From: a virus
Lineage: Duplodnaviria; Caudoviricetes
Length of the DNA: 64,000 bases
IMG/VR virus record: IMGVR_UViG_3300029305_005870
Direction: 5' to 3' (one strand)
Numbering within the stretch: position 1 is the stretch's first letter; each line of letters starts with the position of its first letter. A program made the translations under genes and the position numbers. Below, one piece after another: positions 8,712-32,786 of the stretch. A model generated the notes under the pieces. That model saw nothing but the letters and a program-made list of their open reading frames with translations. It made no database searches and was not told the origin of the DNA.

Positions 8712-8739
8712 AAAATGAAGGAATTTTTACCTTCATTTT
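8712..8739 (-). terminator. Intrinsic terminator
   Basis: aaaatgaagg-N8-ccttcatttt directly after the AP2 gene stop. Confidence 0.7.
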
Positions 8740-9757
8740 AATTTGTTTTATGATTTTTTCTGTATTTCTTTTTTCTACGTCTATTTGCTTTCATAAAGTC
8801 ATTTTTATGTTCTTTATATCATTTAATACCTTTTTGAGCTGCTTTCTTTCTAGCTTTAATAGCTTTTCCTTTTGAAGTAAAATCTCCTAAATAAGTTCTT
8901 TTACCATCTATTTCTATATAAGCTCTTCATTTATTATAAGCTTCTCCTCTATATTTACTTACAAAATAAACACCTGTATATCCAGAAGTATTACTTGATA
9001 ATTTTTTATTTCCTTTATATAAACCATTTATAGTATCTAGTTTAGATTCAATGTTAGTATCTGAACAAATACAAGAACCATATTTATCTGGATCACTTAC
9101 AAGATTACTTAAAAATACTTTCTTTTCTCTACCACAATTAGTACATCTTGTGTGAGCAAATAATCTAGAATCTCTATATTTTTTTCTTCTATAAATATTT
9201 AAAATTTTTTGTTGATTAAAAGTTTTCTTTTGAAGTTTATCTAATTCATCATCAGTATAAGTTTCTGTAATAGCATTATTTTTAATACATATATAAACTT
9301 CATCAAATCCTTTTAATGATGTATCCCAATCTCTAAAAATAGTTCATCCATTTCTATCTAAACTAAAGTTTTCATCTTGTATGTCTGCAAGTGAAATATT
9401 TTTTCCAAATCTTGTAGTTCTACATTTGAATTTATCTTTTCCTATATTATTTAAAGCATTGATAAATTTATTTAAAGGATAAATTCCAGGTAATCCATTT
9501 TTCATTTGATTTTCAAATTCAAAATTATCAATTAATTCGATATTTGAATAATCATCACCTAAAGATTCATTTAAAGAATTTAAACTAATAATTAAAGTGT
9601 TGTCATCTTTAGTATATGAAATATTATTTTTATCTAAAATATCTAAAGCATCTTCATAATCAATATGAGATTCAAAATAGAAATTTCCTTTTTCATAATT
9701 AATATCTATAAAATTATCATCAAACAATTCAAAAACAGTATCTTCAATATTGTACAT
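8738..9757 (-). CDS. AP2-domain DNA-binding protein with Zn knuckle and acidic N-terminal domains (339 aa)
   Basis: Read through TGA: CTNC...CIC...NTSGYTGVYF...NKW(TGA)RAYIEIDGKRTYLGDF.....AIKAR. Confidence 0.85.
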
Positions 9758-9793
9758 AGATAGTTATCTCCTTTTTAAGAATATTATCTATAT

Positions 9794-9801
9794 AATTTAG
9801 C
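9794..9801 (-). promoter_or_regulatory. GCTAAATT late-promoter-like motif (one of 13 intergenic copies)
   Basis: Also at 12739, 16503, 21479, 23038, 31753, 33647, 42210, 44775, 51337, 52649, 54806 and 55851, each 26-51 nt upstream of a minus-strand start codon. Confidence 0.8.
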
Positions 9802-9805
9802 TGAA

Positions 9806-10846
9806 TTATAAAGTTTCAATAAAAGATTTATCTATAAATCTATTTAAATTTCTAATACCTGACTTAAATCCATAAGAATTAAATTCAGATAAAAGATATA
9901 AAGAGAAATTAAAGTCATTTAATCTATTTTTATTAAATAAAGATTTCACATTAGAATTTCTATTATAAGTTATTCTTTCTAAAATGTTTTTTACATCTAC
10001 AGGAATTTTTTCAACATTTTTAAAAGAAATATATCCATTAGCTGAATCACATGACTTCAATAGTTTACCTTCTTCATTTAAATCAGGTTTTCTTATTTTT
10101 TGGTTTCCAAAATCTTTATAATAGGAAAGTCTTCCTGAACCTCTTCCACCTTCTATAGCATATAATCTAATACTATAAATATTATCACTTATCCAATTCA
10201 TTAACTTTTGTTTTTCAATTGAATTTAAATAAATAGATATTTTTTCTTTTATATTATCTACTCTATTTTTATTTTTTGAAATTATAATATTTTCAGATTC
10301 TAATTTTTTATGTTTCTTAATTTCTGAATTAAAATCTAAATTAATTTTTTCTTCTTTTTCTTTATATAATCTTTTATATTCTTTTTGTAAATTAACTAAT
10401 TTAGATTCAATTAAATTTAATTTATCTTCTAATTTCATAAAATATTTTTCTCTTATATTTTTAGGATATAATTGGTTAAATTCATATCTATCATATAATT
10501 CTAAAAAACGATTTAAAGTTATAGGTTTCCATAAATTAGTTGTAAATGATTTTGTAAATTTACATACTACATAAATATTATTTGATTTCTCATAAACATT
10601 AAATATCATGCAATTACGTTCTTTAGAATTTTTAAAATAAATTCGATTGTACTTAAAAATTTCAATTATTTTATTTTTCGAAAGAAGTTGAATTGCATAA
10701 CTATTTTTATTTAAAATATTATTTTCAATTAAGTTTAAAATTCTATTTTTATAATTATTTAATTCACATATTTCCTTTTCTACATCTTCTAAAGGATTTC
10801 CTAATACTTCAAATTTTGCTTTGTTAAAAATTGCTTCACTTACCAT
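9806..10846 (-). CDS. Hypothetical basic coiled-coil protein (346 aa)
   Basis: AAGGAGG RBS and upstream TTGTATTAT motif. Confidence 0.75.
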   Translation of the reverse strand: MVSEAIFNKAKFEVLGNPLEDVEKEICELNNYKNRILNLIENNILNKNSYAIQLLSKNKIIEIFKYNRIYFKNSKERNCMIFNVYEKSNNIYVVCKFTKSFTTNLWKPITLNRFLELYDRYEFNQLYPKNIREKYFMKLEDKLNLIESKLVNLQKEYKRLYKEKEEKINLDFNSEIKKHKKLESENIIISKNKNRVDNIKEKISIYLNSIEKQKLMNWISDNIYSIRLYAIEGGRGSGRLSYYKDFGNQKIRKPDLNEEGKLLKSCDSANGYISFKNVEKIPVDVKNILERITYNRNSNVKSLFNKNRLNDFNFSLYLLSEFNSYGFKSGIRNLNRFIDKSFIETL

Positions 10847-10889
10847 ATGAAAACCTCCTTAAAGTAATTTATTCTATAATACAATTATT

Positions 10890-10920
10890 ACATAAAAAAA
10901 AGAACCTCCGAAGAGGTTCT
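10890..10920 (-). terminator. Intrinsic terminator, copy 1 of a duplicated element
   Basis: agaacctc-cgaa-gaggttct plus A8 (U-tract on the minus strand). Confidence 0.85.
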
Positions 10921-10939
10921 AATTTATTCTTTTTTTAAA

Positions 10940-12707: not shown

Positions 12708-12789
12708 ACTTTAAATCTCCTTAATTAATTATACAATTAATTTAGCACAAATATACAAGGTATATTTATTAATATGTCATAAATAAAAA

Positions 12790-12818
12790 ACATAAAAAAA
12801 GAACCTCCGAAGAGGTTC
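12790..12818 (-). terminator. Intrinsic terminator after the capsid gene, copy 2 of the duplicated element
   Basis: acataaaaaaagaacctccgaagaggttc, near-identical to 10890-10919. Confidence 0.85.
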
Positions 12819-12842
12819 AATTAATTATTTATTTTTTAAATA

Positions 12843-14162
12843 TTATTCACCAGTAGTCATTTTGATAACGCGTTCTTCGTTAACAACTTTACCACCAACT
12901 AGTAATGCATCATTTAATAATTTTAAATCATACATTGTAGCGAAACCTTGACTATTAGCACCATCTGCGAAGCCTAATGCTTGAGTTGGAACGATTGCCA
13001 TGTATGGAGCGTAAACTGCTGCTGAAGTGATCATGTCATCACCATTGTATCCTAAGAAGTAATCGCCAGCTGCTAATGCAGGAGAAACGAATACTTTAAT
13101 ACCATTTAATGAACCTGCGAAATAAGGACCATTGATCTTAGTTTGGTTAGCTGCTTTCCAACCTTCCATCATAGCTAAGATTGGTTTAACACTTGAACTT
13201 ACTACCATATAGTTAGCTGCATGTTTCTTAGTTCTATCATAAATGATTTGAGATGCTAACTCAATTACTTCTGCAAAACCAGCATAATGATCTCTCTTAG
13301 ATACACCTGCAGGTAATGCTTTATTGAATGTTAATTCATCAGCTTTTCTAGCATTCTTATATAATAATGTAACTACTTCAGTATCAATTTCATAAGATAA
13401 CTCAGCACAAGCTTGAGTAGCTAATACTTCACCTAAATCAATACCCATTTCAGTCTTAGCTTGGAATGCAGCCATTTGTGAATAATAAATAGCAATTCTA
13501 CGAGCTTTAGCTTCTAATGGAATACCAGTCATTCTTACATTTAATGTTGGAAGATCATGTTGAGGAATAACTACGTTGTCATAAACATAAGCAGCTTTAA
13601 CATAATCACCAGCTGTAATTTCGACACCTTCTTTTGCATCTTCAGCATCGATAACATCTTCAGTACCATCAGCTTTAATTAAACGTACATTACCATTTGG
13701 AGTCCATGCTGCTTTGAAAGTTGTAGCATCTGCTGCAATTGGTTCAACAACTGCACTAGAAGTATATTGTACTCTTTCTTCAGTCATGTCTCCTAACTTG
13801 AATGGATTATTGAATACATCATTTTGTTTAACTCCACCTTTGTTAGAACCAGCAATGAATTCCATGTATTGAACATAACCAGTTCTAGATTTCATTGGAT
13901 AAACTAATACTAATTCATTAGCAATTAAGTTAGGTAATGCAACTGTAGTTAAATCTAAACAGAATTTCTTATAAGTACTCATATTACCTAATTGAGTACC
14001 AGTTGTGTTAGCAAATGCTTCGTTTAAGAACTCACTTGTATTTGCTAATACTCTTGCGATTGCAATTTTCTTTGTGTTTGGTAATGCTCTACCACCATGC
14101 TCTTTTTCATATACTTTTTCAGAGATGGCTAATTTCTTTGAATAAGCTTCTACGATATTCAT
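12843..14162 (-). CDS. Major capsid protein, T4 gp23-like
   Basis: PNLIANELV.VYPM, EAKARR, ELSYEIDTEV, AAVYAPY motifs; strong codon bias. Confidence 0.93.
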   Translation of the reverse strand: MNIVEAYSKKLAISEKVYEKEHGGRALPNTKKIAIARVLANTSEFLNEAFANTTGTQLGNMSTYKKFCLDLTTVALPNLIANELVLVYPMKSRTGYVQYMEFIAGSNKGGVKQNDVFNNPFKLGDMTEERVQYTSSAVVEPIAADATTFKAAWTPNGNVRLIKADGTEDVIDAEDAKEGVEITAGDYVKAAYVYDNVVIPQHDLPTLNVRMTGIPLEAKARRIAIYYSQMAAFQAKTEMGIDLGEVLATQACAELSYEIDTEVVTLLYKNARKADELTFNKALPAGVSKRDHYAGFAEVIELASQIIYDRTKKHAANYMVVSSSVKPILAMMEGWKAANQTKINGPYFAGSLNGIKVFVSPALAAGDYFLGYNGDDMITSAAVYAPYMAIVPTQALGFADGANSQGFATMYDLKLLNDALLVGGKVVNEERVIKMTTGE

Positions 14163-14193: not shown

Positions 14194-16461
14194 TTAAATA
14201 TTCGCTAGTCTAATTAATGAATCATCTACATCATCATCTTCAAATCTATTTTTTACAATAGTTGGTTTTTGAGCTGATTCATTAACCCTAACTGAAACAT
14301 GTTTCTTATCTAAATTGAACGGTAACTTAGTTACTTGAATTTGATAAGATTTTAAATCTTCACAAACTTGATCAACATCTTCAATAGTATAAGATTCACC
14401 TAATTTACGTTTAATATCTTTTGAAGTTAAACCTAATTTAGTTGCTTTTTCTTCAATATACTTATTTACTGCTTTAGTAGCTAAATTCTTATAGCTTTCT
14501 TTGATCTTAGTTGTTTTTGTAATGCTTTCATTTAATTTTGTGATGTTATTATTTAAAATAGTAATTTTATTTAATGCATCATTTTTATTTTGTTTTTCTT
14601 CAGTTAATTGTGTATTAAGTTCTTCAATATCTTTCTTGTACTTTTCATTTAAATTAACTAAATCTTCGTTAAGTGTTGAAATTTGTTTTGAATTTGATTT
14701 TAAACTTTCATTTAAACTATTAGATTCAACAACCATATCTTTTCTACTCTTAACTAATCTTGAAATTCTTAATTTTTGATTATTAATAATTTCATCTTTT
14801 TGTTTAACTGATTCTTCTAGTTTTTCACAAGTTTCTTTTAAAGACTTTGATGATTTAGCTACTTCACTTAATCTAGTAACCGCTTCTTTATAACGATTAC
14901 ATTCTTCATTTACTTTCTCAACTTTAGTATCACTAACTGCTAATTTTTCTTGAAGTGATTTTAAGTTTTCTTCTAAAGTCTTCTTTGTCTGTAAAGCTTC
15001 TTGCAGATTCTTAACTAATTGTACTGATCCATTATCTATGGCTTCATTTACTTCAGCTCCATCTTCACTAGCTTCAGTCTCTATATCTTCAGCTTGTTCA
15101 GCTTCAGAACTAATTTCATCTGAAGGAATTTCTTCAACAGGTGTTTCATCTGTTATAACTTCTTCTGTTTCATTTCCTTCAACAGGTGTTTCGCTTGATA
15201 CTTCAGTATCTTCTATATCTATTTCAAGAGTTGATAAAACTTCTTTAACTTTATCAATCTCAAAATTATTAACTAAATAATCTAAGAAAATCTCTTTATC
15301 AGATTTTTCTTCAACATCTTGTTCAATAGTTGTTTCAAAAGTTTCTTCTGAAGGAATAATATCCTCTGAATTTTCTGGTTCAATAGAATCTAATTCAACA
15401 TCAACTTCTGAAGGTATTTCTTCAGTATTTTCAATATTTTCTTCAGGAACTTCAATTTCTATTGAATCATCTTCAGATTCTTCATTTAATGTTTCTTCAA
15501 TTACAACATTATTATCTTCAGCAATTTCGTTTAAATCTTTTAAAATTACTACTTCAATTTTTCTATCTTTTAGATCATAAGGACCATAAATTTTTCCTGA
15601 AGGATAAACTCCAAATGAGAATGAGTTTTCTCCATCTTCATAAATATATAAATCCATTTGTTTTGAATAAGAATTAAAAACAGATTGACCTGCACCAAAA
15701 GATTCTATTCCAAAACACCAAGGAGCATTATATTTTTTAACTAATTTACAAGCTTCCTCAAATGTTTCTAATTTAGTACAATCTACTAACTTAACTTCTT
15801 TAGCTAATGATTCTTCGATTTTTAAATTTAAATTATTTAAAGTTTCTTTCATTATCTTCTTACCTTCTTCATCTTCTTTATTAAAGGTCTTTCTTAAAGC
15901 TTCAGTTAATTTAACTTTATTTTTAAATGATTCATTAACATACTTTAATCTTGCTTTTTCAACTCCAGGAATTAAAACTATATCCCAACACTCACATTCA
16001 TAAGTATCTGGATCTACCTCTTCATTTCCATTTATATCTGTTATAATATCACCTTGACCACGACTTGAAATAGCTAATGTAGAACCATAATCACATAATG
16101 TTTTTAAGATTCTACCATTAGGTGTATCTAAGATATCAAAACATGCTATTAATTGACCTTTATCATTTTTTACAGGTTGCTCAGCTAAACAAATAGCTAC
16201 TTTTTCAGGAACTATTTCTGATCTATCTGCTGGATGACCTAATTCACCATAACAAACTTTATTTTTAATTTTCTCTTGCATTATAGGATCATTAAAAACA
16301 TTTTCCCATAATTTTTCTGAGTACTTACGTCCGTTTCTTGTAGGATTAATGAAATCCGCACAAGGACCTACTAATCTTCCTAAGATTCCTTTAGCTTTCA
16401 TTTCTTCAGCTGTAAGTTTTTGGTAAGTAACTCCTTCATTAGTTCTAACTTTTTTAATCAT
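14194..16461 (-). CDS. Prohead protease (T4 gp21/S77-like) fused to an inserted WC domain, an acidic linker and a coiled-coil scaffold
   Basis: RNGRKY, GELGHP, DTPNGRIL, ISSRGQG, WDIV..PG; start at MIKKV after a GGAGG RBS. Confidence 0.9.
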   Translation of the reverse strand: MIKKVRTNEGVTYQKLTAEEMKAKGILGRLVGPCADFINPTRNGRKYSEKLWENVFNDPIMQEKIKNKVCYGELGHPADRSEIVPEKVAICLAEQPVKNDKGQLIACFDILDTPNGRILKTLCDYGSTLAISSRGQGDIITDINGNEEVDPDTYECECWDIVLIPGVEKARLKYVNESFKNKVKLTEALRKTFNKEDEEGKKIMKETLNNLNLKIEESLAKEVKLVDCTKLETFEEACKLVKKYNAPWCFGIESFGAGQSVFNSYSKQMDLYIYEDGENSFSFGVYPSGKIYGPYDLKDRKIEVVILKDLNEIAEDNNVVIEETLNEESEDDSIEIEVPEENIENTEEIPSEVDVELDSIEPENSEDIIPSEETFETTIEQDVEEKSDKEIFLDYLVNNFEIDKVKEVLSTLEIDIEDTEVSSETPVEGNETEEVITDETPVEEIPSDEISSEAEQAEDIETEASEDGAEVNEAIDNGSVQLVKNLQEALQTKKTLEENLKSLQEKLAVSDTKVEKVNEECNRYKEAVTRLSEVAKSSKSLKETCEKLEESVKQKDEIINNQKLRISRLVKSRKDMVVESNSLNESLKSNSKQISTLNEDLVNLNEKYKKDIEELNTQLTEEKQNKNDALNKITILNNNITKLNESITKTTKIKESYKNLATKAVNKYIEEKATKLGLTSKDIKRKLGESYTIEDVDQVCEDLKSYQIQVTKLPFNLDKKHVSVRVNESAQKPTIVKNRFEDDDVDDSLIRLANI

Positions 16462-16533
16462 AATGAGACAGTAACCTCCTATAAGATTTCCTTTAATCAA
16501 TTAATTTAGCTAATTATTATTTTGAAAATAAAT

Positions 16534-16576: not shown

Positions 16577-18346
16577 TTATTCTGCAGGAATTTCATTTTC
16601 TAGTTCGTTAGTGTTTTCAACAAATGTATCTACGAAATCAATTATATTTAAAAGTTCCTCGTTTTCTTCGTATGAAACATCCTTATTATTCTTCCTTGAA
16701 GAATAATGTTTTAATTTAGAACTTAATTCTTGTAATTGAGTCATTAATTTTTTTCTTTCTTCATAACATTTAATAACTGCATTTTTAGTAGGATTATCTT
16801 CTTCTTCAATTCTTTGAATCTCGGTTTCTAAATTTAGAATTTCTGTTTCAGTTTCTTGTAATACTGTTTGTTGATCTCTTAAAGTTTGTCGTTTTTGTTC
16901 TAACTGTTGTTCTAATCTTTGAATCTCAACTTGACTTTGTGTTATCTCTCTTTGAACTGATTCTTTAAACGTTAATTGACCTTTTAATGTAGCTTTTATT
17001 TCATCTAATGTAGATTTAAATTCTGAACTATACTTTTTTCAAATATCTTCTAAAGTTAATCCTTCTAAGTTAATAATTGAATCTTCTAATTGTTTATAAT
17101 CTTTATAACATTTAGTTAAAAAAATTGCTTTATCTTTTAATCTATGTTTAAGAATAGCTTCTCTATCTGAAACATTAATAACTACTTTATTTAATATTTT
17201 TTTAACATCTTTACAAATCTGAATATATTCTCTAAGAGTTGCTTCATAGTTAAATTTATATTCTTCTAAAGTTTCTTCATCTATTTCATCTTGATTATTT
17301 AAATGTTTTAAAAAACCTTTAAATTCTAATAATTTTTTCTTCAATTTATCTTTTTCAATTAATTTATCATATAACTCACTACTTATTACATCGTACGTAT
17401 TTCTACTATGATCTCCAGTATCAAGAATATTTAGATGTGTAGACTTGTCTTTATATAGCTTATCTATTTCATATCATGCTACTTGTGTGTCATGCTTAAA
17501 TTTAGGAACTGTAATCTCTAAATCATTTACCAAACGCTTTTTTAAAATATTTTTAGTTGCATCTAATTTATCTTGAGTTAAATATCCTTTAGTAACTAAA
17601 TTATTTAAATACTCATCTACATAAGAAGTTAAATCACCGAAAGTTAATTTATGATCTACAATGTTTCTTGCTTCAGCATAAGCTATATTTCTTTCATCTG
17701 ACAGTACAGAAGTTATGTAATTTTTAAAATCAACTATATCAAGTACAGGTAGATAATTATCATATTCATTAGTTTTATATATTTTATCACAAATATCTAT
17801 AAGAATTACTATATCACCATAAGTTAAATTATTAGTTTCAATATGTCTATTACCTCTTGTAAAACCTAGATATCCTTTATCTTGAAACTTACTTAAAGGA
17901 ATACTTGTTTTAGGGTAAGTTAAACAAATTAAATTATCTTTTTCATCAAATCCATTTTCAAATTCAACTACACCACCATTAATTAAAAAACGTAATTGTC
18001 TTAATCTTGCTTCTAAATCTCTTCTTTTATATATTCTAGAAGCTCTACCTGAATTACTAAGAGAAATTCCTAAAAATTGCTTCGCTTCTTGCTTTGAAAT
18101 TTCTTCATAGGTTGAATTATAATAATCAACAGTAGTTTGTCTTCTATCTCAGGTTCTAGGTTTCTTCCCAGAAATATTACTAGTGTATTCATTATTATAA
18201 GAAGATTTATTTCCTCGACTATTTTTATATGCATTAATTAAATCTTTTGGAATATTTTCATTTAAATATTCCTCATTTAAATCTTCTTCTATATTTAAAT
18301 CCCAAATTCTTTTTAATTCTGGAAGAATATCTATCATTTCACTCAT
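16577..18346 (-). CDS. Hypothetical virion-internal protein, C-terminal coiled coil (589 aa)
   Basis: Joins 18149..18355 and 17039..17344 through 3 TGA; N-terminal LNEEYLNE. Confidence 0.8.
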
Positions 18347-18359
18347 ATTTATCACCTCA

Positions 18360-19994
18360 TTAAATTGCTCTTAAATGTCTAGGATTTCTTCATCAGAAAG
18401 CATCTTCTTTAGCTATCTGTAATTTAGCTCCTTCTCTGTTAAAAATCTCTTTTGGAATAGTAAATTTTAATCCTTGACTATTATGATTTTCGAAAGCTAA
18501 ATGTCCTATATATTTAATTGTTATAGGTAGAGCCACAGATCCTTTTAAATTACTACAATTCATAAAAGCACCTATTTCAATTATTTCTAGATTTTTAGGT
18601 AAAATCAGTTTTCTTAAATCGGAACATCCTGCGAAAGATCTTATTCCGATTCTCGTAACAGAATCTGCAAACTGAATTTCTTTTATAGAAGAGAAATTTT
18701 CAAAAGCACCATCAGGAATATTAGTTACTCCATCTTTTATAACTACTTTTCTAACTAACTGTGTAAGTCCTGAAGCTTTTATTTTATTTATATCTTCTAT
18801 AGATTCGAATTCTAAAGTTCCAATATTAGAACTTCCAGATAATAAATCATTTAAATCTTTAACCATAATATTTTTACATAAATCTTTATCTGCTATTACA
18901 ATTGGAATTAAATCGGGTTCTTTTAATAAAACAGATTTTAAAAATTCATCTTTTCTATTATAAAGGCTATTACTATTAGATGATATTGGATTTGAATCAA
19001 ATCCATTTAAAAATTCTAAATTTTCTCCTGTAGAACTTATATTTAATTGATAATTAATAGCTTTATTTTTTCTTTCAGTTTTGTGAATAAAGCAAATAAG
19101 TCTTCCTCTAGAATGATAATTATTGAAGAAGCTTATTCCATATCCAGTACACCAACTTAAATATCCTGAAGTTCCTTCTCCAGATCCTCCAATAACAACA
19201 TTATTAGCTAAATGAGATCAAACTTCTATTACATCATAATTTTTAGTACTTCCTAAAAGTTTAAAACTATCTTTTACCTTTAAGTTTGTTTGTGAATCTA
19301 CTCTTTCATCATTTTCTAGTTCTAATACTAAATTAGATTTAGGTCCAGCTAAAACATAATTTACAAAATCAGAAACACTTTCAAAATTACTTATAGATCT
19401 TTTATCTTGAGGATAACTTGACTTAAACTCTTCAAAATCTTCGATAGCTCTTTCTATTTGATTCTCAAGGTTTATAAAATCTGTTTCTCCTGCAAGATAT
19501 TTAGGAAGAAGAAGATTTTTAGCTACATCTCCTATTAATCCTTTTTCAATATTTGTTTTAGGATCCATTTTTAAAATTTTATTGAATGTTTCTCTATCAA
19601 TACTTGAATAATATTTATCATATATTTGAGTAAGTTTATCTGTTTTATTTTGAGTATTTAAATTTAAAGATTCAGGATTTTCTACATAATTTATAAATTC
19701 TCTTACAGTATTATTTTGAAATTCTCTTATATTTTTAATAGGATAAGAAGCTCTGTTTTTTATAAAAGCGTCAATTGCATTATAAACTTCTTCTCCATAA
19801 TTTAAAAATTCAGTATCTCCTTTCATATATCTTTGTAAAAGTAATCCTGAAGCATTAGGTCCTATTTTATCAGGTTCATTATTTACAAATTTAGTTTGAG
19901 GATCTAATTTTAAAATCTCAATAAAAGTCTCATAAGGAATTGAATTATAATGTTTTTCATAATCTTTTGTTACATCTTCAATTAAATTAGTCAT
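18360..19994 (-). CDS. Protein with a duplicated helical module, a WCT domain and BspA-type LRRs (544 aa)
   Basis: Joins 19218..19994 and 18393..18866; SWCTGYG..FFNNY; LRR_5 repeats (IPDGAFENF..IKEI, IGIRSFAGC..LRKL.LP). Confidence 0.85.
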
Positions 19995-20009: not shown

Positions 20010-21437
20010 TTAATTTATAATCTGAATTCTAGCTTTAATATTAATTTTATCTAGTTTTGTATTTGAATTAATTGTAGGATAATATATATGTAAAACATTT
20101 AAAGGAATCTTAACAATTACATCTTTAGAATTTCAATATAAAGAATATTTTCCAATCTCTTTTATGGTATTTGGAAGTTTTATGCTATCTATAGTATCAT
20201 TATTATAAAACGCATAAGGAGCAATTTTAGTGACAGGTTTTCCATTTATTTCTTCTGGAATAATTAATTCTTCAACTATAGCATTTTTTGAATAATTTGA
20301 ACCTGTAATTACAATATGATTTTTTTCTTCTTTATATTTAAATTTATTTCTTATAGCAATTTGTTTTTGCTCTTCTATATAATCGTTATATTCTTGAATC
20401 CATTTATTGCGATCTTCTATAATATTTTCTAAATTTGTTTTTAATTCACTATTGTTATTTTTTAGTAAAGTTTTAACCATAGCAGGAAGACCATTAAATC
20501 TATCAACTAATGAATCAATTCTAGAATTAATTTCATCTAAATTTGATTTTGAATATTCAGAATAAGTATGTAAATCAAAGTTTAAAATATCTGAATTTAA
20601 ACTATCAATCTCTTCTCTATAAGAGTTTAAAAGATTATTATTTCTCTCTTGTCTTATTTGTTCTCTTTCTTCTTCACTTAATTCACCATCTAAGAAAGTA
20701 AGATTAACATCTGTTCCTATAAATCAATTATCACAAAAAGTTTCTGGAATATCATCTTGATTACGTAAAATTGAAATATTATTAACATCCTTAATTGCTT
20801 CAGACTCGATTGTTATTACATTTTCTGGAATTACAATTTCATTTATTACATTTAAAGGACTAATAGCTTCTGATATAGCATCTGCACAAATAGTTGTAAT
20901 GAACTCTGGAATTACAACTTGAGTAGAATTGTAAGCTGTGTCATTATAAAATTCATCTACAAAAGCATACAATGTATGACCTTGATAAATAAAACCAACA
21001 TTATTGAATTCATAATCAGATATACTAATTCCTGGAAGTAAATGTAAAGGAATTTTATATTGAGAATCTAAATTATAATTTGTACGTGCATTAAAATCTT
21101 CATAAGCATAATTTAACTCGAATCTCATATTATTTGATAATTGAATAGTTCAAGATTGATTAGATAACATTGCTGCTATTACTTCATTTGTATTTTCATA
21201 TGTAAAAAAGTATAAAGTATGGTCCCCGCCAGGAGCTGCATGATTATTAAAAGTATCTTCACTTTGAATAAATTTTTGTCCTGCAGCTGAATTATTTTCA
21301 TGACAAATAAATTGTTGCGCTGCTTCATAAGAATTTATTCTAAATAAATCTATTCCTTTATCAGAACCAATATGTTCTGCTCCTTCAACTTGTATAGCTT
21401 CTTTTAATATTTTCTTAATTTTTCTTATTTTTTTCAT
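20010..21437 (-). CDS. BspA-type LRR protein (475 aa)
   Basis: Joins three track ORFs through TGA; VVIPEFITTI, LIIPEEINGKPVTKIAPYAFY, LPNTIKEIG. Confidence 0.85.
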
Positions 21438-21492
21438 AAAAGAAATATACCTCATTTCTTATTTATATTATATCATATAATTTAGCAAAAGA

Positions 21493-21526: not shown

Positions 21527-23002
21527 TTACATAATACTTCTTCCTAAAACGTTACCGTGTGATTCTAAATAATAAATATTAGATAGCTTTAAGTTATTAG
21601 TTTGTGGAGCTGAAGGTTGTCCATCTGTAACTTCTTTTTGAGTTAATACTGAATCTCTTAAATATTTTGCAATTTCAGCTTTTGTTGTTTCAATTAATTC
21701 AGATCCATCAATACTTATAAAATATTTTACTTTTGGTCTTGAATTACTTCTTGGATAGAATCTTAATAATTCAGTTCCTGAAGTTGTTTTGAAAATTTTA
21801 TTATCTACTAAAACATCTAAATGATATAAATTTCCTTGTCTTTCTTTTCCTGTAGCAGCTCTCATATCAATTGTTGCTTGTTTGTTTTCATAATCAACTC
21901 CAGTTGATCCATACATTTCAGACATTTTATAAATTAGAACATTACTTACTCCTAAGTCTTTTAACTTCTTTTTAGCAATACTATCATTTAAATCCTTAAC
22001 ATAACCAATTTTGAAGAATTCACCTTTTCTAACGTTTTCAATAAAAGAATACACATCATCTCTATTTAAAGGAGTAATAGGAGAACGAGTTAAATCTTCT
22101 TCTAATACTAATTCAGTTTCTTCTTCAGTTGATTCATCTTCTGCTTCTTCAGGATTAATTAAAGCTAAAATTTTATTTAACGCTTCATTATATCCTTTAT
22201 CAAAATCAGATTCTACTTTTTCATCTTCAATTATTTCAGTTTTAATCTTTTCAATTATATCTTCAATTGATAAAGTAGATTCTTCTTCAGAATCTAAAAT
22301 TTCATTATCTTTAACTGTATCTACTTCTTCATCAGCTTCATTTAAATCTTTATTTAAGTTTTCTCTTATAGTTTTAAATCTTGCGATCTCAAATTGAAAA
22401 GCATCAAAATTATGTGCATCATCATTTTCTGGAACTTCAAGAACTACAACATACTCAACATCTTCATCACGACAAGTTTCAACTAATTTTTTAGCATATT
22501 GAATTGCTTCTTGTTCACTGTTAAAGCTATCTTTAAATTCATCTAAATATTTATAGTCAGTATCTTCATCATCGTTAGTATATAAATAACCTACTTCATA
22601 ATTATAGTTATCACAAGTAATATTACCTTCTCAATCATATGTATCTCCATAATTATCTCTATAATATGACTTTTTAACTTCTTCCTTTAATGATTCAGCT
22701 TTAATAGCTGTCATATAAGTTCCTAAAGTAGATAAAATAGCTGAGTCATTTGCATTTCTCATTCTCTGTAACTTATACATACAAGAAATATAATTTTTAT
22801 GTTCTATTTCTTCTTTATGATCTTCTAAAGTTTTAATAGCTTTAGCTAACATTAATTTTGCTGTTTTTTCATTTTTTCAATCTTCATATTTATTTAAAAC
22901 AGTCATAACAGTAACTTTTTTATCTGTTTTAGTTATTGTATTTTCAGTTAAGCTAACTTTTGATTTATTTAATTCTCTTAAAGCTTCTTGAATAATATTC
23001 AT
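21527..23002 (-). CDS. Multidomain hypothetical virion-internal protein (491 aa)
   Basis: Joins 22631..22852 and 21527..22054 through 2 TGA; several L/IxE sites and an acidic linker. Confidence 0.8.
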
Positions 23003-23052
23003 TTTATATTAATCTCCTTTTTTTATTTTATTCTTTAAATTTAGCAAATAAA

Positions 23053-23502
23053 TTATCTTATATTTTCAAATAATTTTAAATCAGCTTTTATTAACCTTAA
23101 TAATTTAAAACAAGGAAGTAAATCATAATTTTTAAAATAATTATTTAAAACTCTTGTTATTTCTTCAGCTCTACTATGTTTTAAAAATAATTGATTATTT
23201 TCTAATTTTTTAGAATACAGTATAATTTGAAGATTTAATGCAGCTAATGTACTTAATACATCTTCTGCATTAAACTCCTCTTTAACTATATTCTTATATA
23301 AAGGAGATTTTTTAGAATTATAATTTTTTCTAATCATCTCATAAAAATTAGAAACATCTAAGTGTCTGTTATCATTAATGAATTTAATTGTTTCTAAATC
23401 AATTCCTTCTTTTAACACTAATTTATTTAAATATTTATTTACATTAATTCCTGAAGATTGCATTTCAGTTAATAATAAAATTAAATCATTTTTTGTAAGC
23501 AT
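23053..23502 (-). CDS. Helical hypothetical protein downstream of the portal
   Basis: 149-aa ORF with AAAGGA RBS. Confidence 0.75.
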   Translation of the reverse strand: MLTKNDLILLLTEMQSSGINVNKYLNKLVLKEGIDLETIKFINDNRHLDVSNFYEMIRKNYNSKKSPLYKNIVKEEFNAEDVLSTLAALNLQIILYSKKLENNQLFLKHSRAEEITRVLNNYFKNYDLLPCFKLLRLIKADLKLFENIR

Positions 23503-23531: not shown

Positions 23532-25373
23532 TTATAAATTTTCATCTAATAAATTTAAACCTAAATCATCAGGAGAAGGAAGATCTTCTTCTTCATCTTC
23601 TACTCCTTCTTCATTTATTGTTTGTTTAAATTCATCGTTTTCAAAAGATTCTAATTCAACATTTAAATCATCTTCTGAATTATTTGTTTTAGTATTTTCA
23701 GTTTCATCTTCAGTTTCTTTATCTTCTGCTTCTAATGAATCGATATATGCTTGAAGATATGAAATAACTTCAGAATCATTTACTACTCCAGCTAATAAAG
23801 CTTTGTAAATTTTTAATTTAGTTGCTTTATCTTCAATATCAGCTAATTGATTCATTAAATCACCAACATAACGAATTCTGTTATCAGTATTAGTTCTTCT
23901 ATCTAATTCTTCTTGAGTTATTGGAGTTTGCATTCTAACTGTAAACTTATTTACATAAGAATCTAATCCTCTATCAATTAAAAATAGATTAATAATATCT
24001 GTTACTAAAGTACATAAAACTTGTTGAATCTTTTTAATAGATTTACCATATCTAGAAGATAAAATTGTTAATGAAGTTCCTCCATTAAATCCTGCTCCAT
24101 CTTCTGTAAATCCGAAGAATTGTTTTGGAACTTTTAATGATCCAAATAATTTATCTCTAAAATACTCTATATCAACTAACGATTTAGGATCAAAGTCTCC
24201 ACCAATAGTAGTAGCATTTATATTTCCTTGTCCTCCGTGAACTGGAACATAAATAGTATTTTCAATAGGACCTGTACTATTATATTCTGACATTCCAGAT
24301 TCAACATTTATAGCTGATTTTTGCTCAATTTTATCTTTTAATCTTTCCATAAAATTTCTAACTTGTTCTTTAGGCATATCTCCTACTTCAACTGTTAGAA
24401 TTCTTACAACTGCTGATTTTGTTAGACGATTAAGTAAAGCAGACATTTCTAGTAAATTTAATTCTCTTCAAATTTTAAATGAATTATAAAGAATTGATTG
24501 TCCTCTTTTTATAGAATAAGAACTTTTAACAACATTATAATCTTTATCTTCACTTGAAGAATTTAAATCTTCAATAAAAATATCAATTTCTTCTTTTTTT
24601 CTTTGAGAAGTGTTTTCTAAAGATCCATGAGCAAAACTCATAGCATCAAATATTTCAATATCTTTTTTATTTACTTTATATTTGTTTACACCTAAATAAT
24701 TATTTATAACTTCATTATTTGTATTAACTGCTGTTATAGAATTTACAGGTGCTTGAATAAATCCATGAGTTTTTCCAAATTTTTGTAAATCTAAAACTTC
24801 TCCAGGATTTGGTACCATTTCAACATAAGGAACATAAGGATCTTTATCCAAATCATATATTCTTATTTTAACATCTTCATTTAATACTTCTTTTGGAGTT
24901 AAAGACTCATTTAATTGCTTTGTTCTTGAATTATCTTTAAATAATAAATCATTTCCATAATCTGATTGTCTAAAAAGTCTTATAAAAACATCTCCATAAG
25001 TAACTAAACAATAAGATCAAGAATAAATATGTTTATTTATATCTAAAGAATCTAATAATCAGTTTGTATAACTTAAGACATTTGGATCAGAACTTTCAAT
25101 TCAAACAGACTCTCCTTTATCATTAGATTGTATAGCATCTTCTGCGTAAGTTTCTAAAACTGCTGAAACTACATCATCTTGAGCCATTGAATCTAATAAT
25201 TGATACATTTGTTCTCTACTTTGAGTTGATTGTGATAAAGAATTTAAAGATGATAAATCTAGTGTTCCTATAGAAGCACCATCTAAAATACTATCTACAA
25301 ATGAATTTTTTAAATCTATTCCTAATTCAGGTTCAGGTGTAGGAACAGGTTTTATTTTTTGGTTAGTATCCAT
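23532..25373 (-). CDS. Portal protein, T4 gp20-like (613 aa)
   Basis: Three track fragments joined by 4 TGA; YGDVF, KIW(TGA)RELNLLE..LLNRL, VEVGDMP, DIEYFRDKLFGSLKVPK. Confidence 0.92.
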
Positions 25374-25395: not shown

Positions 25396-27417
25396 TTATA
25401 ATATTACTATTTCATCATATAAATTAATTATATCTTTTATATTTGAAGGATGATCCATATTATTATTAAATACTGAATGTAATTTTTTTAATTCTTCTTC
25501 TAAACTTATTGTTAATTGATTTACATCATCAGCTTTACGAGAATCTTCATTCATTCTTAATATTTCTTCAGCTGATTCTCCATAATCATATGCAAACTCT
25601 TCTGCATGTAAAGAAGCATTATATAAAGCTCCACAAACAGCATCTGAAACATCTTTCGACCCACCATCTGGGTGATCCACCTTACCTGTATCTAAATTTC
25701 TTTCTAGATCAGTAATTTCTTGTTTTAATAGTCTATCTCCATATACCTCAAGTCTTTTTTCATATATAGCAGATTTAAATGCTAAATAAGGTTTACAAAC
25801 TTTATCAGAATCAACTCTATCTACTGATAATATACTAATAGGATATCCTTCAGCTTGTAATATTTGTTGTAAGTCAGCTGATTGATAAGTATCTGATGTA
25901 ATACCTTTTATATTAAATCCTCTACTTTTTAATCATCTAATAAACTGACGATTTTTTTCAAAACTAATTTCTCTACCTTTTGGAGCTTTAATTGCTACTG
26001 AAAATGCTAGAGAATAAAATAAATCTTTATCTTGTAGATTTGGGTCTACACTTGGTTTTTTACCTTTTATAAAAACACCAGCAATACCAGTTCGGTCACC
26101 TGTTTTAGACATATCGAGATGTATGTATAGAGGTTTACTTTTTAGTTTAGAATCTATTTTACTTAAATCAAAGAAATTATAATATTGAACTTCTTTATCA
26201 TCAGGACCATTTCCTATAGTTAAAATTTCATTTTTAAAAGGATTTGTAATTCTTTTAGTAACAATTTCGTTATAAGCTTGTCCACTAATATATTTAGTGA
26301 TACTTGAACTTGAAATACCTGCAAAGTCACATAACGCTCTATCAATATCATCTAAGAAATCAGCTTTCAAATCTACTGGAGCTTCTATTATTTTGTATCC
26401 TTTGTTAATATACATATCTGAAGGATGATCATCTGGAATTACCATAGACTCTAAGAATTTATTACCTAAAGCAATTCTAAACATTTTATCTGAATAAGTT
26501 CCTTTAGGTTTAACTTCCCATACACTACCATCTGAAATATAAACATTATCTTTTTCAGATTTTAGTTTTTGTTTCATATGTTCTTCTAGAAATGATTTAT
26601 CACTTCTTTTAGAAGAAGCAAGAATTAATAATGTTGGATTTTTACCTTTATATACGAAACGTGTTTTCATACCACCTATAGCAGTATTTATCATATCTTT
26701 TGCTTTTGCTTTTTGTTTTTCAACATCTTTATTTTTAATAAATGAAATTTCATCAAAGAAAGCAAAATATACAGGTAAACCAATTAAATCATCTGCTTGA
26801 GAACCAATTTTAATGTCAATTGCAACTTTATCATTAAATTTTTTAGGTACTCATATTTTTTTAGTTCTACCTTCTAATTCACCATTCCTCATAAATCAAG
26901 GACTTGATTGTAATGTATTTTGGAATTTACTAATTCCAATTTCTTCTGCTAGATCTAATTTAATATTCATAAAAGCAAACACTATTTTTTCTGTAGGTTT
27001 TAAATGAAAATATCCAACAGGATCTTTTAAACATAATATTCTATGTAACAAATAAGCTGCAATTAAAGATGCAATTTCTGATTTTCCTCGTCCACGAGAA
27101 CCACTAAGAATAGCATTATTAACTGTAGTTGTTATATTATCTGGAAATAATTTTTTTAACTCTTTTCTCCAATAAGGATATAATTTAGAATTTCCTTCAT
27201 TATCATGTCAGGCATTTCCTAAATATTCATATGAATCAACAAATGTCTCAATATCTACAGGTGCTTCTGTATAATCTTCTAATAATAAATTGTTTAATTT
27301 ATCAGAAGATCCTTTTTCAACCATTTCAGTTAAAATAGAAAGAGCTAACTCTTTCTCTTCAGGAGTTAGCGTATCAAGTAAATTTAAATCAATATTATTT
27401 TTAATTGAATTGTCCAT
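25396..27417 (-). CDS. terL: Terminase large subunit (673 aa)
   Basis: Walker A GSRGRGKS, Walker B AFFDE, RNase H-like HLDMSKTGD and DHP.GGSKDVSDA; joined through TGA. Confidence 0.93.
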
Positions 27418-27612: not shown

Positions 27613-28380
27613 TTAAGATTTTTTCTTCTTAAATTTTCCTCTTTCTTTTCCTATTGCATTTGATAAATTAATTAAAGCTTCATCAGAATCAAGATAATCT
27701 TTTAAATTTCCTTCATCATCATAATCATCTAAAGTTAATTGAATTGCTTTATTATAATCAATTCCATATATTTTAGGAAAAATAAACTTACTATAATTAT
27801 TTTCCATATTTTCTTTCATATAATTTATATAATTGTTTATTACAGAAGCAATTTTCTTAAGTCATTCTACATTATTTAAAACTGAAAGAATATGTTTACA
27901 AGCAGCTCCTTTAGAATCATTAGGATTTGTTATATTTGAAGGTCTTGTTTCTTTATCTGTTGCATGAGAATTTTTATTTGCAAAATAATTCAATCTGTAT
28001 TTAAAATCAGGACAAGAACATCCAATATAAATATTAGAGCTTCCTAAAGATTCTACTAAAGATCTATAAATTAAGTTATAAGTTAGTAGATTATTATTAT
28101 CTTTAACTTTTCTTTGTATTTTACCTAATATATTATTAAATATAATTTTAACAGTATAAGTATTAGTTTCACCTTGTACTTTTACTCCAAATTTTAATTT
28201 ATCTTCTTTTCAAAAAGTATTCATATCAATTTGATTATATTCTTTAACTGTATTAGCTACTTTACATTTATTTTTAGATGTTCATCTATTTTCCTTACTA
28301 TTTTTATAATTATCTGCTTTTCTACTTTTAGCAATAAGATCATTTCTTGAGGCTTCATTTAATATATTATTTTTCATCAT
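27613..28380 (-). CDS. SWIM zinc-finger protein (255 aa)
   Basis: GCSCPDFKYR...TNPND.KGAACKHI; 3 TGA; mostly missing from the track. Confidence 0.85.
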
Positions 28381-28479: not shown

Positions 28480-29592
28480 TTATTTGTATTCTTTAAATTT
28501 ATTTATTATAGTATTTTTAATTTCTTTTAAATCAGTATTTGCTTTAAAAGAAATTCTATCTAATTCATTACAATTTATTTTTTTAGGATTATTTGTTTGA
28601 TAAATTCTGTTATTTGCTTCACATCAAGCATGTGTTATTATCTTTAAATCTTCTTGCTTATTAGATAAGTATCCTAAAACGTAATCGGTATCAAATCCTA
28701 ATTTATTATAATAACAAGTAGCAATAAATGCTCCACTATAACATATATAATTCTTAGATATTAAATCTTTTATATAACTTGTAGAATTTTTAAAATCTTC
28801 TATTTTTATCAATTCATTATATAAATATTCAAAGGTTTTAATTCTAGTATTTAAATCAGTTCCAGATATTTTATAAGTTTCTTGCAAACTCTCTAAACTT
28901 AAGTCTTTACTAATTAATTCATTTCTTAAATCTTTTAAATCATTTAAATAATCTAATCTTCTAATTTCTTTAAATATTAAATTTCCTAATCCAAATTCTC
29001 CATCGTTCTTAATAGAATTCTGTCTTAAATTATATATATCATTTATATATTTTTCAATTTGTTCCATATTAGGATTATTTATTATATTATAGTATTTATT
29101 TTCTCATTCGACAACTTCTTTATTTAATTTTTTATTATCAATTTCAGGAATATCATTTTTAGAAGGATTTTTTAATCATTTTTCTTGATTTAAACTATAA
29201 ACACCATTTGATATATTAGATAAATCATCTTTATTTTCTACATATAACTCAACATTTATATCTTTTATATAAATATCATATTTAAGATTAAATAAACTTT
29301 TATAACAGTTATATAATAACTCTAAATGTTTATCTTCACAATCAAATTTTTCATTTGCAATTATATGAACATCTAAATCACTTTCTTCATTATAATTATA
29401 ATTAGCATTAGAGCCTAAAATATAAATATCTTCTATATCTAATTTTAATCCATCAGCTTCAATTGTTTCTTTAAATTTATCTACTATTTTTATAATAGCT
29501 TCTTTAACATCTTCTTTTAATTCATTTTTTTCAGTTCAAATTAAAGGATTTAATATATCATGTAATTCAATTTGTTCTAAGAAAATATTCAT
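28480..29592 (-). CDS. Pol-beta-superfamily nucleotidyltransferase fused to a transglutaminase-like Cys-His domain (370 aa)
   Basis: LNPLIW, LGSNANYNY...SDLDVH, VELYVE, GVYSL..EKW, GEFGLGNLIFKEIR; then ICYSGA...HAW(TGA)CE. Confidence 0.85.
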
Positions 29593-29605
29593 TACGTTTA
29601 TCTCC

Positions 29606-30514: not shown

Positions 30515-30536
30515 AATTTAATTTATCCTTTCTTTT

Positions 30537-31274
30537 TTAATCAATTGGATAGAATAAAGAAGAATTAACTTTTAAAGTCTCTCTCAACTCTTTTAATTCA
30601 GTATTTCCTTCTTCTAACATTCTTTCTCCATCTTGTGTTCATAATGCATTAGATTGAGTAAATCTAGTTCTAATTCTTCCAAGAGCTACTTTAGTTATTG
30701 CTAAAGACATTCTTTTTAATATATCAATTCAATAATCACTTGTAACTTCTTCTACATCTTGGAATATAGGAACATATTCAATAGTTATATAAGTAGGAAT
30801 TCCATGAGCAACATTTATATATAATTTATCAGCATGTTTATCTTCTTTAAATGATAAATCAGTTGACATATTACTTCTCATTTGTAATAAAGTATTGTAA
30901 GATAGATAGTTAAGAAGATAACTTTGTAAATTATATTGTCCTCCTAAACCATTAGAGAAAGTCATTCAAGTTTGAGCGTACATTGGATCTACATTACTAC
31001 TAATTCCTCCTTGAGTAACTGTTGTATCACCTACTAAACCTTCACTTCTATATACTTTCACAATAGAACTATGTTTAAAATCTTTTAAATCTATAACTCT
31101 ACTAAAAGGAACAGTTATTAATTTTGTTTCATCTATATATCTTTGTAACTCTATTAAAGCTTGATCTATACATCTACCAATTCCTTTATTATCAATCTCT
31201 AAATCAAGTACTCCACCTGTTAATTGAAATTTTATATCTTCAATATATTGATCTTTAGTAAAAGACATTGACAT
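30537..31274 (-). CDS. Neck / head-tail adaptor protein, T4 gp13-like
   Basis: IKFQL.GGVLDLEI; W(TGA)I....LA..K..LGRIRTRF....DGERMLEEGN.ELKELRE.L. Confidence 0.8.
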
Positions 31275-31366
31275 TATAATCACCTCTACATTATTCTAAA
31301 TTTAATTACTTCTTTTTATTGAATAAATCTAATAAGATATTTAGTTTCATTATTAATATTAATTAC

Positions 31367-31723
31367 CTATTCTAATATTATAAATTTTGTTCTAGGAACT
31401 ATAGTATTTATATCAGTTTCATTTTTAAATAACTTAATTTGGTAATAATAATTTCCAGATTCTAAATTTTTAGTTTCTTCAGAATTTAAAGTAATATATA
31501 TGCAATTATCACTTTTAATATAATCATCTTTAGTATAATGTTTTGTAATTATTGCATCCTCTCACTTTTGATTTGGTTCTAAAAGATAGAATTCGATATA
31601 ATCATTTTCAGTTAAATCATAAAATTCATTTTCTAATCCTGAACCAATATTTATTTGAAAAGGAATTTTAAAAGTATCTCCTCTATGTAATCTAATTATT
31701 CCATTACTTGAAATAGTACTCAT
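31367..31723 (-). CDS. BppU-N-like Ig-fold structural protein (118 aa)
   Basis: IRLHRGDTF...ETKNLESGNYYYQIKL...TIVP..KFIILE; absent from the track because of TGA. Confidence 0.7.
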
Positions 31724-31767
31724 ATAATCACCTCATATTTCAAATATCATATAATTTAGCAAAAAGA

Positions 31768-31792
31768 AAACTATTACAAAATGCAATAGTTT
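31768..31792 (-). terminator. Intrinsic terminator (imperfect stem)
   Basis: aaactatt...aatagttt next to the late motif at 31753. Confidence 0.55.
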
Positions 31793-31811
31793 AATTTTTA
31801 TATATTTATTT

Positions 31812-32786
31812 TTAATTTAATATTTCTTCAGCTTTTTCTTGTCCTGATTGAATTAATTCATTTGTTTCATTTTTAACTAAAGATAAAGCTTTATGTAACA
31901 TTCCTATAGAAATAGTTGCATCATCTACTACAGAATTTAATAATGTTTTTAAATCCTCTTTATTATTAAATTCTGAAACTATTGAATCAAAAGTTGAAAT
32001 TGTAGAATTTATTTCAGATACAAATTCCCAAGCCTTAGTAATTAAATAATTAATAGATTGATCTAAAGCATAATTAATTGAAGCATCTTCCATAACTTCA
32101 GTTTGAATATCAGTTTCTAAATTATTTTCTGGAGTAATGATTTCAGATTGAACTACTTCTTCCTCTTTTAAAGATTCTCCTATATAATGACCAGCATAAT
32201 AAGTATCTCTAATAGTATCTTTTGTTTGTTTGTACATCTTAGTCTCATTTTCTTTTTCTTGATCTGTTATTTCATCATCTTTATCTAATTTCCAAGTACT
32301 AAATAAAGAATAATATTTATCTCTTAAAGAAACATTTTTATTTCTAGTTCTTTTATTTTTATTTAAATCAGTATCTATTACTACATATTCATCTTCATCA
32401 TCTGTCCAACCATATTCATTAATAATATCTGAAATAGCTCTTTCAAAATCTGGATCATTACAAGATAAATTAATTACTGTTTCTTGAGGTAATTCATGAA
32501 TATAATCCATTGCTATAGGAGTTAAGTATCCTTCAAAAGATTTATTATCTTCAATTCACTCAATAAATTCATCGTATGTAATATCAGATGATTTTATATT
32601 ATTTTCTTTACTATATAGATTTAATAAATTTTTTATTGTATGCTTAACATCTCTATACTCAGCTTTTAAAGACATATCTTTAATTAAGTTATTTTGAATA
32701 TCTGCAAATATAGGATATTGTTTTAATCTATTTATTAAATCATCTGAATAACTAAATCTAGCTTCATTTAATTTAATTAATTTCAT
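31812..32786 (-). CDS. Hypothetical virion-internal protein (324 aa)
   Basis: Joins two track ORFs; starts MKLIKLNEA. Confidence 0.75.

Follow-up and report, generated by a model that had tools for sequence, protein, structure and literature searches.

In bacteriophage T4, the prohead core comprises gp21, gp22, gp67, gp68, Alt and the internal proteins; the latter join it via a capsid-targeting sequence, and the protease gp21 strips N-terminal propeptides of 7 to 65 residues (PMC5694885, PMC9026906, PMC3012670). The internal proteins are diverse and have in common only this capsid-targeting leader (PMC3012670), of which ten residues are enough for targeting (PMC9026906). Alt is shortened at both ends, by six residues at the N-terminus (ITE-6) and by 63 at the C-terminus (LTE-619), gp22 is chopped into short fragments by gp21, and the capsid propeptide is cut at multiple places (PMC5694885), the propeptide of gp23 encompassing 65 residues (PMC9026906). 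Here, we analysed a stretch of 64,000 nucleotides (hereafter the window) from IMG/VR virus record IMGVR_UViG_3300029305_005870 (Duplodnaviria; Caudoviricetes), in which seven proteins encoded among and beside the head genes start with short leaders ending in [LI]xE, the candidate cut being denoted by a vertical bar. On balance, these seven are probably passengers of the prohead core that are trimmed by the S77 protease of the phage, and the set is best read as cargo of the T4 internal-protein/Alt type with new kinds of cargo.

Two further systems invite comparison. In the giant phages phiKZ, 201phi2-1 and SPN3US, which have S80 proteases, many head propeptides are removed after Glu at a short motif, and phiKZ-like propeptides often hold redundant sites (PMC9026906, PMC5694885). 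The giant-phage motif is S/A/G-x-E, whereas that of the window is L/I-x-E as in T4, and no homologs of the virion RNA polymerase or of inner-body proteins were seen in the window. Polyvalent proteins of phages and conjugative elements (Iyer et al. 2017) combine effector domains, including Pol-beta nucleotidyltransferases, in one polypeptide whose gene lies among those expressed late or encoding the virion; such polypeptides are thought to enter the host and to be cut there into separate units, with release proposed to occur through an embedded zincin-like metallopeptidase (PMC5512222). The source of the window is an uncultivated, myovirus-like phage of ~190 kb with a T4-type head and TGA read as Trp. 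Its nearest cultured relatives by capsid protein, at ~30% identity, are Bacillus SP-15, Listeria LIS04, Bacillus HSE3 and Streptococcus GXN1; 44 related loci are found in IMG/VR, with capsid identities from 69% down to 24%. These cultured phages (SP-15 and LIS04 belong to Thornevirus) have the same U9/S77 protease and a homolog of the SWIM protein described below, and differ in using the standard code, in being without the gene cassette that the window carries between portal and protease, and in having the SWIM homolog in the neck block.

Gene identities were derived from Pfam and PHROGs searches, and all features lie on the minus strand unless stated otherwise. In contrast to T4, the prohead protease (S77, gp21-like) and the scaffold reside in a single protein of 768 residues (14194..16500), which matched Peptidase_S77 with 39.6 bits (cut-off 27) and phrog_207 with 1.6e-30. 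The protease domain (~15796-16461), whose motifs GELxH89P and S145-S146-R-G are invariant in 22 orthologs, is followed by a scaffold part (14197-15795) in which a small domain and an acidic linker precede a coiled coil. As the octamer GCTAAATT at 16503-16510 abuts the TTG at 16500, the true start of the protein is probably the ATG at 16461. The preliminary description of this DNA had called the motif dense in this protein, and this density exceeds composition both in the window and across the orthologs: the scaffold part holds 464 [LIV]xE against 283 expected, with an excess in 22/22 orthologs (z 1.2 to 4.8), and the window protein holds 36 against 26.6 expected from shuffles (z 2.4). This excess resembles the behaviour of T4 gp22. 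Among the relatives (L004-L041), the size of the fusion ranges from 508 to 1153 residues, the variation being confined to the acidic linker and the coiled coil. No solved structure matched the protease-scaffold by sequence. A paralogous origin of the protease-scaffold and the leucine-rich-repeat (LRR) proteins of the cassette was rejected, with no BLAST hit at E<0.01, a single WC in each and barely similar surroundings.

The major capsid protein (T4 Gp23 type; 12843..14162; Pfam Gp23, 4.2e-36) provides the reference substrate. Its residues 9-413 align by phmmer with residues 28-479 of T4 gp23 over the full length, and in this alignment the T4 sequence FLTE|AEIGG falls beside SEFLNE48|AFANTTG of the window. 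T4 gp23 is cut after Glu65. The corresponding site reads [FY]-[LIM]-x-E-[AS]-F across the clade (27 distinct orthologs), with only the 24%-identity outlier L042 aligning poorly there and having FLTE|D nearby. The main cut is thus predicted after Glu48 (FLNE48|A49), which would define a propeptide of 48 residues (14019-14162), and the window protease most likely cleaves after Glu in (L/I)-x-E, as in T4. The start of the capsid protein, MNIVE5|A, had been listed as an instance of the motif; the peptide exists, but it lies inside the predicted propeptide and could be a secondary site at most, the T4-homologous site being E48|A49. As a separate observation, the capsid gene is split near residue 97 in four related loci (L026:8317-11063, L033:9274-11039, L035:9152-10991 and L040:6174-10995), and in L040 further near residues 225 and 314, by insertions carrying HNH endonuclease open reading frames (ORFs) homologous to window positions 11745-12707. 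The SP-15 capsid gene is likewise annotated as two pieces with an endonuclease between them; that of the window is intact, with the HNH gene just downstream.

Among the candidate cargo proteins, the SWIM zinc-finger protein (27613..28380) has 255 residues, is basic at both ends and starts with the leader MMKNNILNE|A (28354-28380). Its assignment fell just below the Pfam cut-off (17.9 versus 19.6), but the CxC...CxH residues are invariant in the family (C121, C123, C161 and H163 in 56 aligned homologs), and several homologs carry PF04434. The family comprises 439 database matches at 48-88% identity. In all 116 listed homologs with an N-terminus, as well as in the window protein, Glu occupies P1 and Leu, Ile or Val P3 (83, 28 and 6 cases, respectively), while P2 is free and the preceding leaders span 5-188 residues of unrelated sequence. 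Tandem sites such as LNEQILNE| are common in these leaders, and the LIS04 homolog begins with MILFE|MNRSKLI. The site is internal in longer ORFs of L009 and L036, and the upstream part in L036 is a nucleotidyltransferase (NTase). In the AlphaFold2 (AF2) model, with a predicted local distance difference test score (pLDDT) of 81, residues 1-8 are disordered (pLDDT <50) and the first helix starts at residue 12. A search for solved relatives of the fold returned nothing with Foldseek and a best Z of 3.8 with a wide aligner; the model matched only uncharacterised SWIM proteins of large phages. Matches annotated as SWIM in Maribacter phages were set aside as another family, consisting of small early proteins that have only the zinc finger in common.

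The adjacent gene encodes a Pol-beta-fold NTase (28480..29592; residues 7-238) with a C-terminal domain of 130 residues and the leader MNIFLE|Q (29575-29592). It matched Pfam NTP_transf_2 (23.3 bits, cut-off 21) and phrog_36119 (1.8e-31), and G60, S61, D72 and D74 of the GS...DxD active-site motif are invariant. In ~105/118 homologs, [LIVF]-x-E directly precedes the conserved xxExHxxLNPxxW, behind prefixes of 4-315 residues. The NTase domain ends in ...ELSLESLxE, and in the window protein this conserved segment furnishes a second candidate site, SLESLQE238|T (28879-28899), within a flexible inter-domain linker. An [LIV]xE at most 19 residues from the domain end was found in 35/40 proteins with a C-terminal extension of more than 30 residues versus 8/26 short-tailed ones (p=3e-6); for the exact position, the figures were 22/40 versus 8/26 (p=0.08). 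The two-domain AF2 model has a pLDDT of 90; only residues 240-243, right after SLESLQE238|T, fall below 50, and residues 1-10, which include the leader, average 62. NTase and SWIM proteins are fused in seven database homologs and in L036, with LxE|[DEA]SR..L..KSK at the joint, so that the boundary motif of the cargo becomes internal in these fusions, as it does in L009 and L015.

Fold searches with the NTase model returned AAD(9)/ANT adenylyltransferases (AAD(9), E 5e-4), CD-NTases, MNT and the minimal NTase 2rff (Z 7.1). Its C-terminal domain, previously called a Cys-His enzyme, had no Pfam match even at E up to 1 and no clear match in two whole-model structure searches, the results of which were filled by the NTase domain. 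Fusions to SWIM, NUDIX, rubrerythrin-like and other modules occur in this family; the recurring C-terminal partners (homologs P0124-P0148) are a YHYRGPVYHF domain, NUDIX (PF00293) and rubrerythrin (PF02915), and a further one is an LYHGT/LYRG domain that is possibly ADP-ribosyltransferase-like.

Four more candidates form a cassette between the portal and protease genes, a slot that in T4 is occupied by core genes 67 and 68. The first gene (21527..23002) encodes a protein of 491 residues with no known domain and the leader MNIIQE|A (22985-23002), whose orthologs begin with MDSIQE|A (L004) and MDAIQE|A (L038); GCTAAATT lies upstream at 23038-23045. The second (20010..21455) encodes a protein of 481 residues with a C-terminal BspA-type LRR (LRR_5, 8.7e-10) and a leader ending in KILKE19|A (21399-21455), the orthologs having NLKE|A and KLTE|A. 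The third (18360..19994; Pfam LRR_5, 1.8e-19), with the leader MTNLIE|D (19977-19994), encodes 544 residues; two repeats at the N-terminus are followed by a middle domain containing WCTG and by a BspA-type LRR at the C-terminus. In this family, [LI]xE lies just before the conserved start (D)EY.K..S.I in 11/11 proteins, including that of the window, behind leaders of 6-16 residues. The two LRR proteins scored 70.3 and 39.0 bits with LRR_5 (cut-off 27.7). The fourth gene (16577..18355), preceded by GCTAAATT at 18421-18428, encodes 592 residues with a coiled-coil-like C-terminal half and a leader of 33 residues with tandem sites, ...DLNE|EYLNE|N (18257-18355); its orthologs have FLDE|NIPRDL (L004) and LLDE|NIPRDL (L038).

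In the closest relatives with flanks (L004, L038, L006 and L008), this slot holds four to five large genes that are 24-38% identical to those of the window or have no identity with them, and nearly all of their leaders end in LxE: MDSIQE|A, MPKNLKE|A, MITLLDILNE|A, ...FLDE|N, MILNLLNE|K, MILQLLSE|S and MILNFLKE|D. The cassette is missing in more distant relatives and its gene content turns over. It seems that insertions are frequent in this slot generally, making it a hot spot; in LIS04 (L045 3141-6276) it is filled by ribonucleotide reductase genes. The conserved protein of 149 residues encoded directly after the portal gene (23053..23502), at the gp67/gp68 position, was used as a negative control: LLTE is not kept in this protein, 23 orthologs having LAD, LTD, LTT, LTN or LSD instead. 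The seventh candidate is an acidic protein of 324 residues encoded beside the holin genes (31812..32786), with the leader MKLIKLNE|A (32763-32786). Its orthologs begin with MLKLINE|D (G001) and MKLTLIKE|D (G002), and apart from this start only the C-terminal ~110 residues are conserved.

The motif was also assessed by frequency. [LIV]xE[SAE] ending within the first 30 residues was found in 5/9 proteins named in the preliminary description versus 2/35 early genes (p=0.002), which bears out the N-terminal enrichment anticipated there. Disregarding that selection, it was found in 7/19 head-block genes versus 2/56 others (p=0.0007), and [LIV]xE[AS] within 12 residues in 5/19 versus 0/56; the tail genes did not differ from the early genes in this respect. 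Over their whole length, the candidates show no excess over shuffles (z ~0) except for one LRR protein. The caveat that LxE is common proved justified, as [LI]xE occurs within the first 12 residues in 25% and within the first 20 in 34% of ordinary genes of the relatives. Given this background, a single occurrence proves nothing and we relied on conservation, by which seven of the nine named proteins keep the leader in all or nearly all orthologs, while an HNH endonuclease and a protein of 302 residues do not. The further proposal of polyproteins cut at domain boundaries has support from the conserved NTase linker site and mostly fails for the LRR proteins, in which only ~1/7 (481 residues) and 2/7 (544 residues) internal motifs are kept in the complete collinear genome G001. 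The internal sites listed for the 491-residue protein fall outside the region alignable with its G001 homolog, so evidence for polyprotein cutting is limited to the NTase family.

Taken together, the cleavage rule derived from capsid and scaffold and the conserved leaders matching the T4 pattern led us to read the seven proteins as passengers trimmed by the S77 protease. The signature is uniform in that P3 and P1 are fixed, P2 is free, and the length and sequence of the leader vary; in the window, the leaders comprise 5-33 residues with no shared sequence beyond [LI]xE. In the proposed sequence of events, the seven proteins would co-assemble into the prohead core around the protease-scaffold, and the protease would then remove their leaders and also cut the NTase linker at SLESLQE238|T, freeing the C-terminal module. 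The scaffold would be chopped at its many LxE sites and exit the head, and the folded mature proteins would stay in the head among the packaged DNA and probably be ejected together with it at infection, like the T4 internal proteins and Alt. The sequences establish the gene identities, the homology between the capsid sites of this phage and T4, and how the motif is conserved and placed; we infer the cleavage itself, the presence in the virion and the ejection by analogy to T4, and ejection as effectors is less sure than trimming in the prohead core.

The likeness to T4 includes the S77 protease, the homologous [FY]LxE|A cut predicted for the capsid protein, the LxE-rich scaffold and mutually unrelated cargo with (L/I)xE leaders. 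Moreover, the six-residue leaders MNIIQE|, MTNLIE| and MNIFLE| equal Alt's ITE-6, the predicted linker cut in the NTase parallels the C-terminal cut of Alt at LTE-619, and cargo genes turn over quickly among relatives. Unlike in T4, the predicted cargo proteins of the window are large (255-592 residues) and of BspA-type LRR, Pol-beta NTase and SWIM kinds, their genes lie inside the head block, and outside the motif their leaders are dissimilar in sequence; the phage itself reads TGA as Trp and is related to Firmicutes phages. The tandem LxExxLxE in the SWIM, NTase and 592-residue leaders fits the redundant sites of giant phages. As in polyvalent proteins, the window NTase carries a C-terminal domain and the fusions of its family are multi-domain. 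In contrast to polyvalent proteins, no peptidase domain was detected in the candidates by Pfam, even at E up to 1, and the joints of the fusions carry the motif of the prohead protease.

Several observations weigh against cargo that is trimmed and injected. The N-terminal background of [LI]xE in these AT-rich genomes is high, as given above, and an N-terminal IxE is retained in a few plainly structural proteins, too, among them the sheath (MPxxxIxE|I). In G001, the sheath and the proteins at 36767 and 62918, all non-head, keep it as well; there, the entire N-terminus is conserved and no boundary is apparent. The leaders have nothing but the motif in common and some consist of five or six residues, fewer than the ten of the T4 IPIII targeting sequence, which makes targeting by the leader less secure than cleavage. 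The leaders of T4 Alt and the internal proteins likewise differ among themselves, so that the diversity of leaders in the window speaks neither for nor against such targeting. Because the homologs are related to one another, independent events are fewer than the counts suggest. The NTase homolog of cyanophage S-CRM01 sits among replication genes. No virion proteomics of SP-15 or LIS04 was found in the literature, and the SP-15 genome paper reports no virion mass spectrometry. Finally, the SWIM protein is highly conserved (50-66% identity) and in LIS04 is encoded in the neck block, where it is annotated as a tail protein; conservation and position are more in keeping with a core part in structure or assembly than with an effector in an arms race.

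This last point belongs to the alternative that survives best, which we nonetheless consider rather improbable, namely that the proteins are processed in the prohead and act as core, scaffold-accessory or DNA-organising parts, like T4 gp67/gp68 or the phiKZ inner body, and not as effectors. Their function would then be in assembly or in packing the genome, and not in host takeover or anti-defence. Besides the SWIM protein, with its basic ends and its homolog in the neck/head-completion block of LIS04, this would account for the acidic or coiled-coil-like character of the 592- and 324-residue proteins, as in scaffolds, and for a cassette at the T4 core-gene position. However, the cassette genes turn over fast and are missing from many relatives that build heads, unlike essential parts and like the variable internal proteins of T4 (PMC3012670), and the cargo includes an enzyme fold, the NTase, and protein-binding LRRs, with related NTases fused to further modules.

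Less likely still is that [LIV]xE is intrinsic to each protein, for instance by capping the N-terminus or taking part in interactions or catalysis, and that all seven are ordinary late cytoplasmic proteins. The motif always abuts a conserved domain and could represent its first conserved residues, some structural proteins have a similar motif within a fully conserved N-terminus, and the S-CRM01 NTase homolog is encoded outside a head module. Yet the same three-residue rule with free P2 recurs at the boundaries of at least six unrelated families and matches the capsid maturation site, and the segments holding it are disordered or of low confidence in the AF2 models. In addition, tandem copies are frequent, a redundancy also known from phiKZ-like propeptides (PMC9026906), and the NTase linker site accompanies the presence of something to release.

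Chance or composition, by which LxE would merely be frequent in an acidic, AT-rich proteome and the genes picked by motif, can draw on the absent whole-protein enrichment, the 25-34% background, the failure of 2/9 candidates and most internal sites, and region boundaries chosen after the motif had been seen, but it is highly improbable overall and very unlikely for the seven supported proteins in view of the positional conservation behind variable leaders (117/117 for SWIM, ~105/118 for NTase), the head-block contrast (7/19 versus 2/56) and the scaffold enrichment in 22/22 orthologs. Chance is, by contrast, the best reading for the HNH, 302-residue and 346-residue proteins described below and for most internal motifs.

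With trimming in the prohead core as the preferred reading, a broader and distinctly tentative proposal may be formulated, in which (L/I)xE serves as a plug-in grammar. The NTase (>200 clusters) and SWIM (>400 clusters) families would be delivered by the capsid, freed from their leaders and from each other by the prohead protease, and, being often adjacent or fused, might constitute a conserved injected enzyme-plus-partner pair, with the portal-to-protease slot as a swap site for LRR binders directed against host defences. The mechanism as such is already known; the novelty lies in the clade, in the fusion of protease and scaffold and in the kinds of cargo (BspA-type LRR, NTase and SWIM). What enters the cell along with the DNA has been worked out in just a few model phages. 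Should the reading be true, injected proteins of uncultivated phages from gut and rumen could be recognised by the head protease motif from sequence alone, and a predicted location, together with an initial property open to testing, would be assigned to two large, so far unnamed families of unknown function and to the phage BspA-type LRR proteins. Since the mature N-termini are predicted to the residue (Ala10 for SWIM and Ala49 for the capsid protein), the idea could be decided either way by a single data set from virions or metaproteomes.

The gene map rests on the reading of TGA as Trp, which raises the minus-strand ORF coverage from 41.8 to 54.7 kb and yields tightly packed genes whose starts coincide with those of the preliminary description; all peptides quoted there are present at these starts. 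Translation table 11 was rejected because its ORF map has gaps exactly at the genes in question, which code 4 closes. In-frame TGA codons are few in the early genes and number up to nine in late genes. The window has a GC content of ~24%, and no tRNA or suppressor tRNA was found in its 64 kb. Small early genes occupy 529-8664 (minus strand) and 55930-64000 (plus strand), with a single late block at 8738-55843 (minus). Recorded contigs that carry the window's own NTase and LRR proteins reach 191.6 kb in length. Within one clade (capsid identity 40-69%, loci L004-L044), standard, TGA-recoded and TAG-recoded phages occur side by side, the window being TGA-recoded; recoding is therefore a trait of the phage and uninformative about a wall-less host, and a Mollicute host was discarded as unsupported.

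Among the remaining head genes are those of the portal (T4 Gp20 type; 23532..25373; Pfam Portal_T4, 2.1e-38), whose N-terminus has no LxE leader, the terminase large subunit TerL (25396..27417; phrog_9, 3.4e-12), which is kept in 19 related loci, and a head-tail adaptor (30537-31283); holins are encoded at 32800-33596 and a DNA methyltransferase at 10940-11767 (Pfam/PHROGs in the last three cases). Of the domain assignments made beforehand, Gp23 capsid, S77 protease, Gp20 portal, TerL, two LRR_5 proteins and the Pol-beta NTase held, and AP2 did not. The supposed AP2 protein (8738-9757) had HNH matches in PHROGs only and no Pfam AP2 match; it is one of two free-standing HNH endonucleases, the other being encoded at 11745-12707, and the PHROGs matched by the two are phrog_99 (8.8e-12) and phrog_8446 (2.7e-6). 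It was discarded as cargo, being an ordinary homing endonuclease whose N-terminus and SLNE do not align with the G001 homolog and whose AITE aligns with IEE within the conserved body of that homolog, with no leader. For the protein of 346 residues (9806-10846; MVSE|A), encoded between the methyltransferase and an HNH gene, no homolog was found in five relatives and no domain matched. The LIEE|S of the 302-residue protein (29606-30514), also named as a site, is not conserved, only the C-terminal ~190 residues being kept. This protein and its orthologs (L049 and L050) have an acidic, low-complexity N-terminal half with repeated N-[QE]-I-D-[ML]-E, and the gene always lies between those of the adaptor and the NTase.

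The element GCTAAATT occurs 14 times on the coding strand, mostly 5' of late genes, and looks like a late-promoter element. The preliminary description had linked it to the candidate cargo genes; it does precede late genes including three of the cassette, but also tail genes and both HNH genes, and thus marks late genes generally and not cargo. One copy (31753-31760) lies inside the listed ORF at 31367-31786, whose true start is for this reason probably a downstream ATG (MSTISSNG...), where the G001 and G002 orthologs begin.

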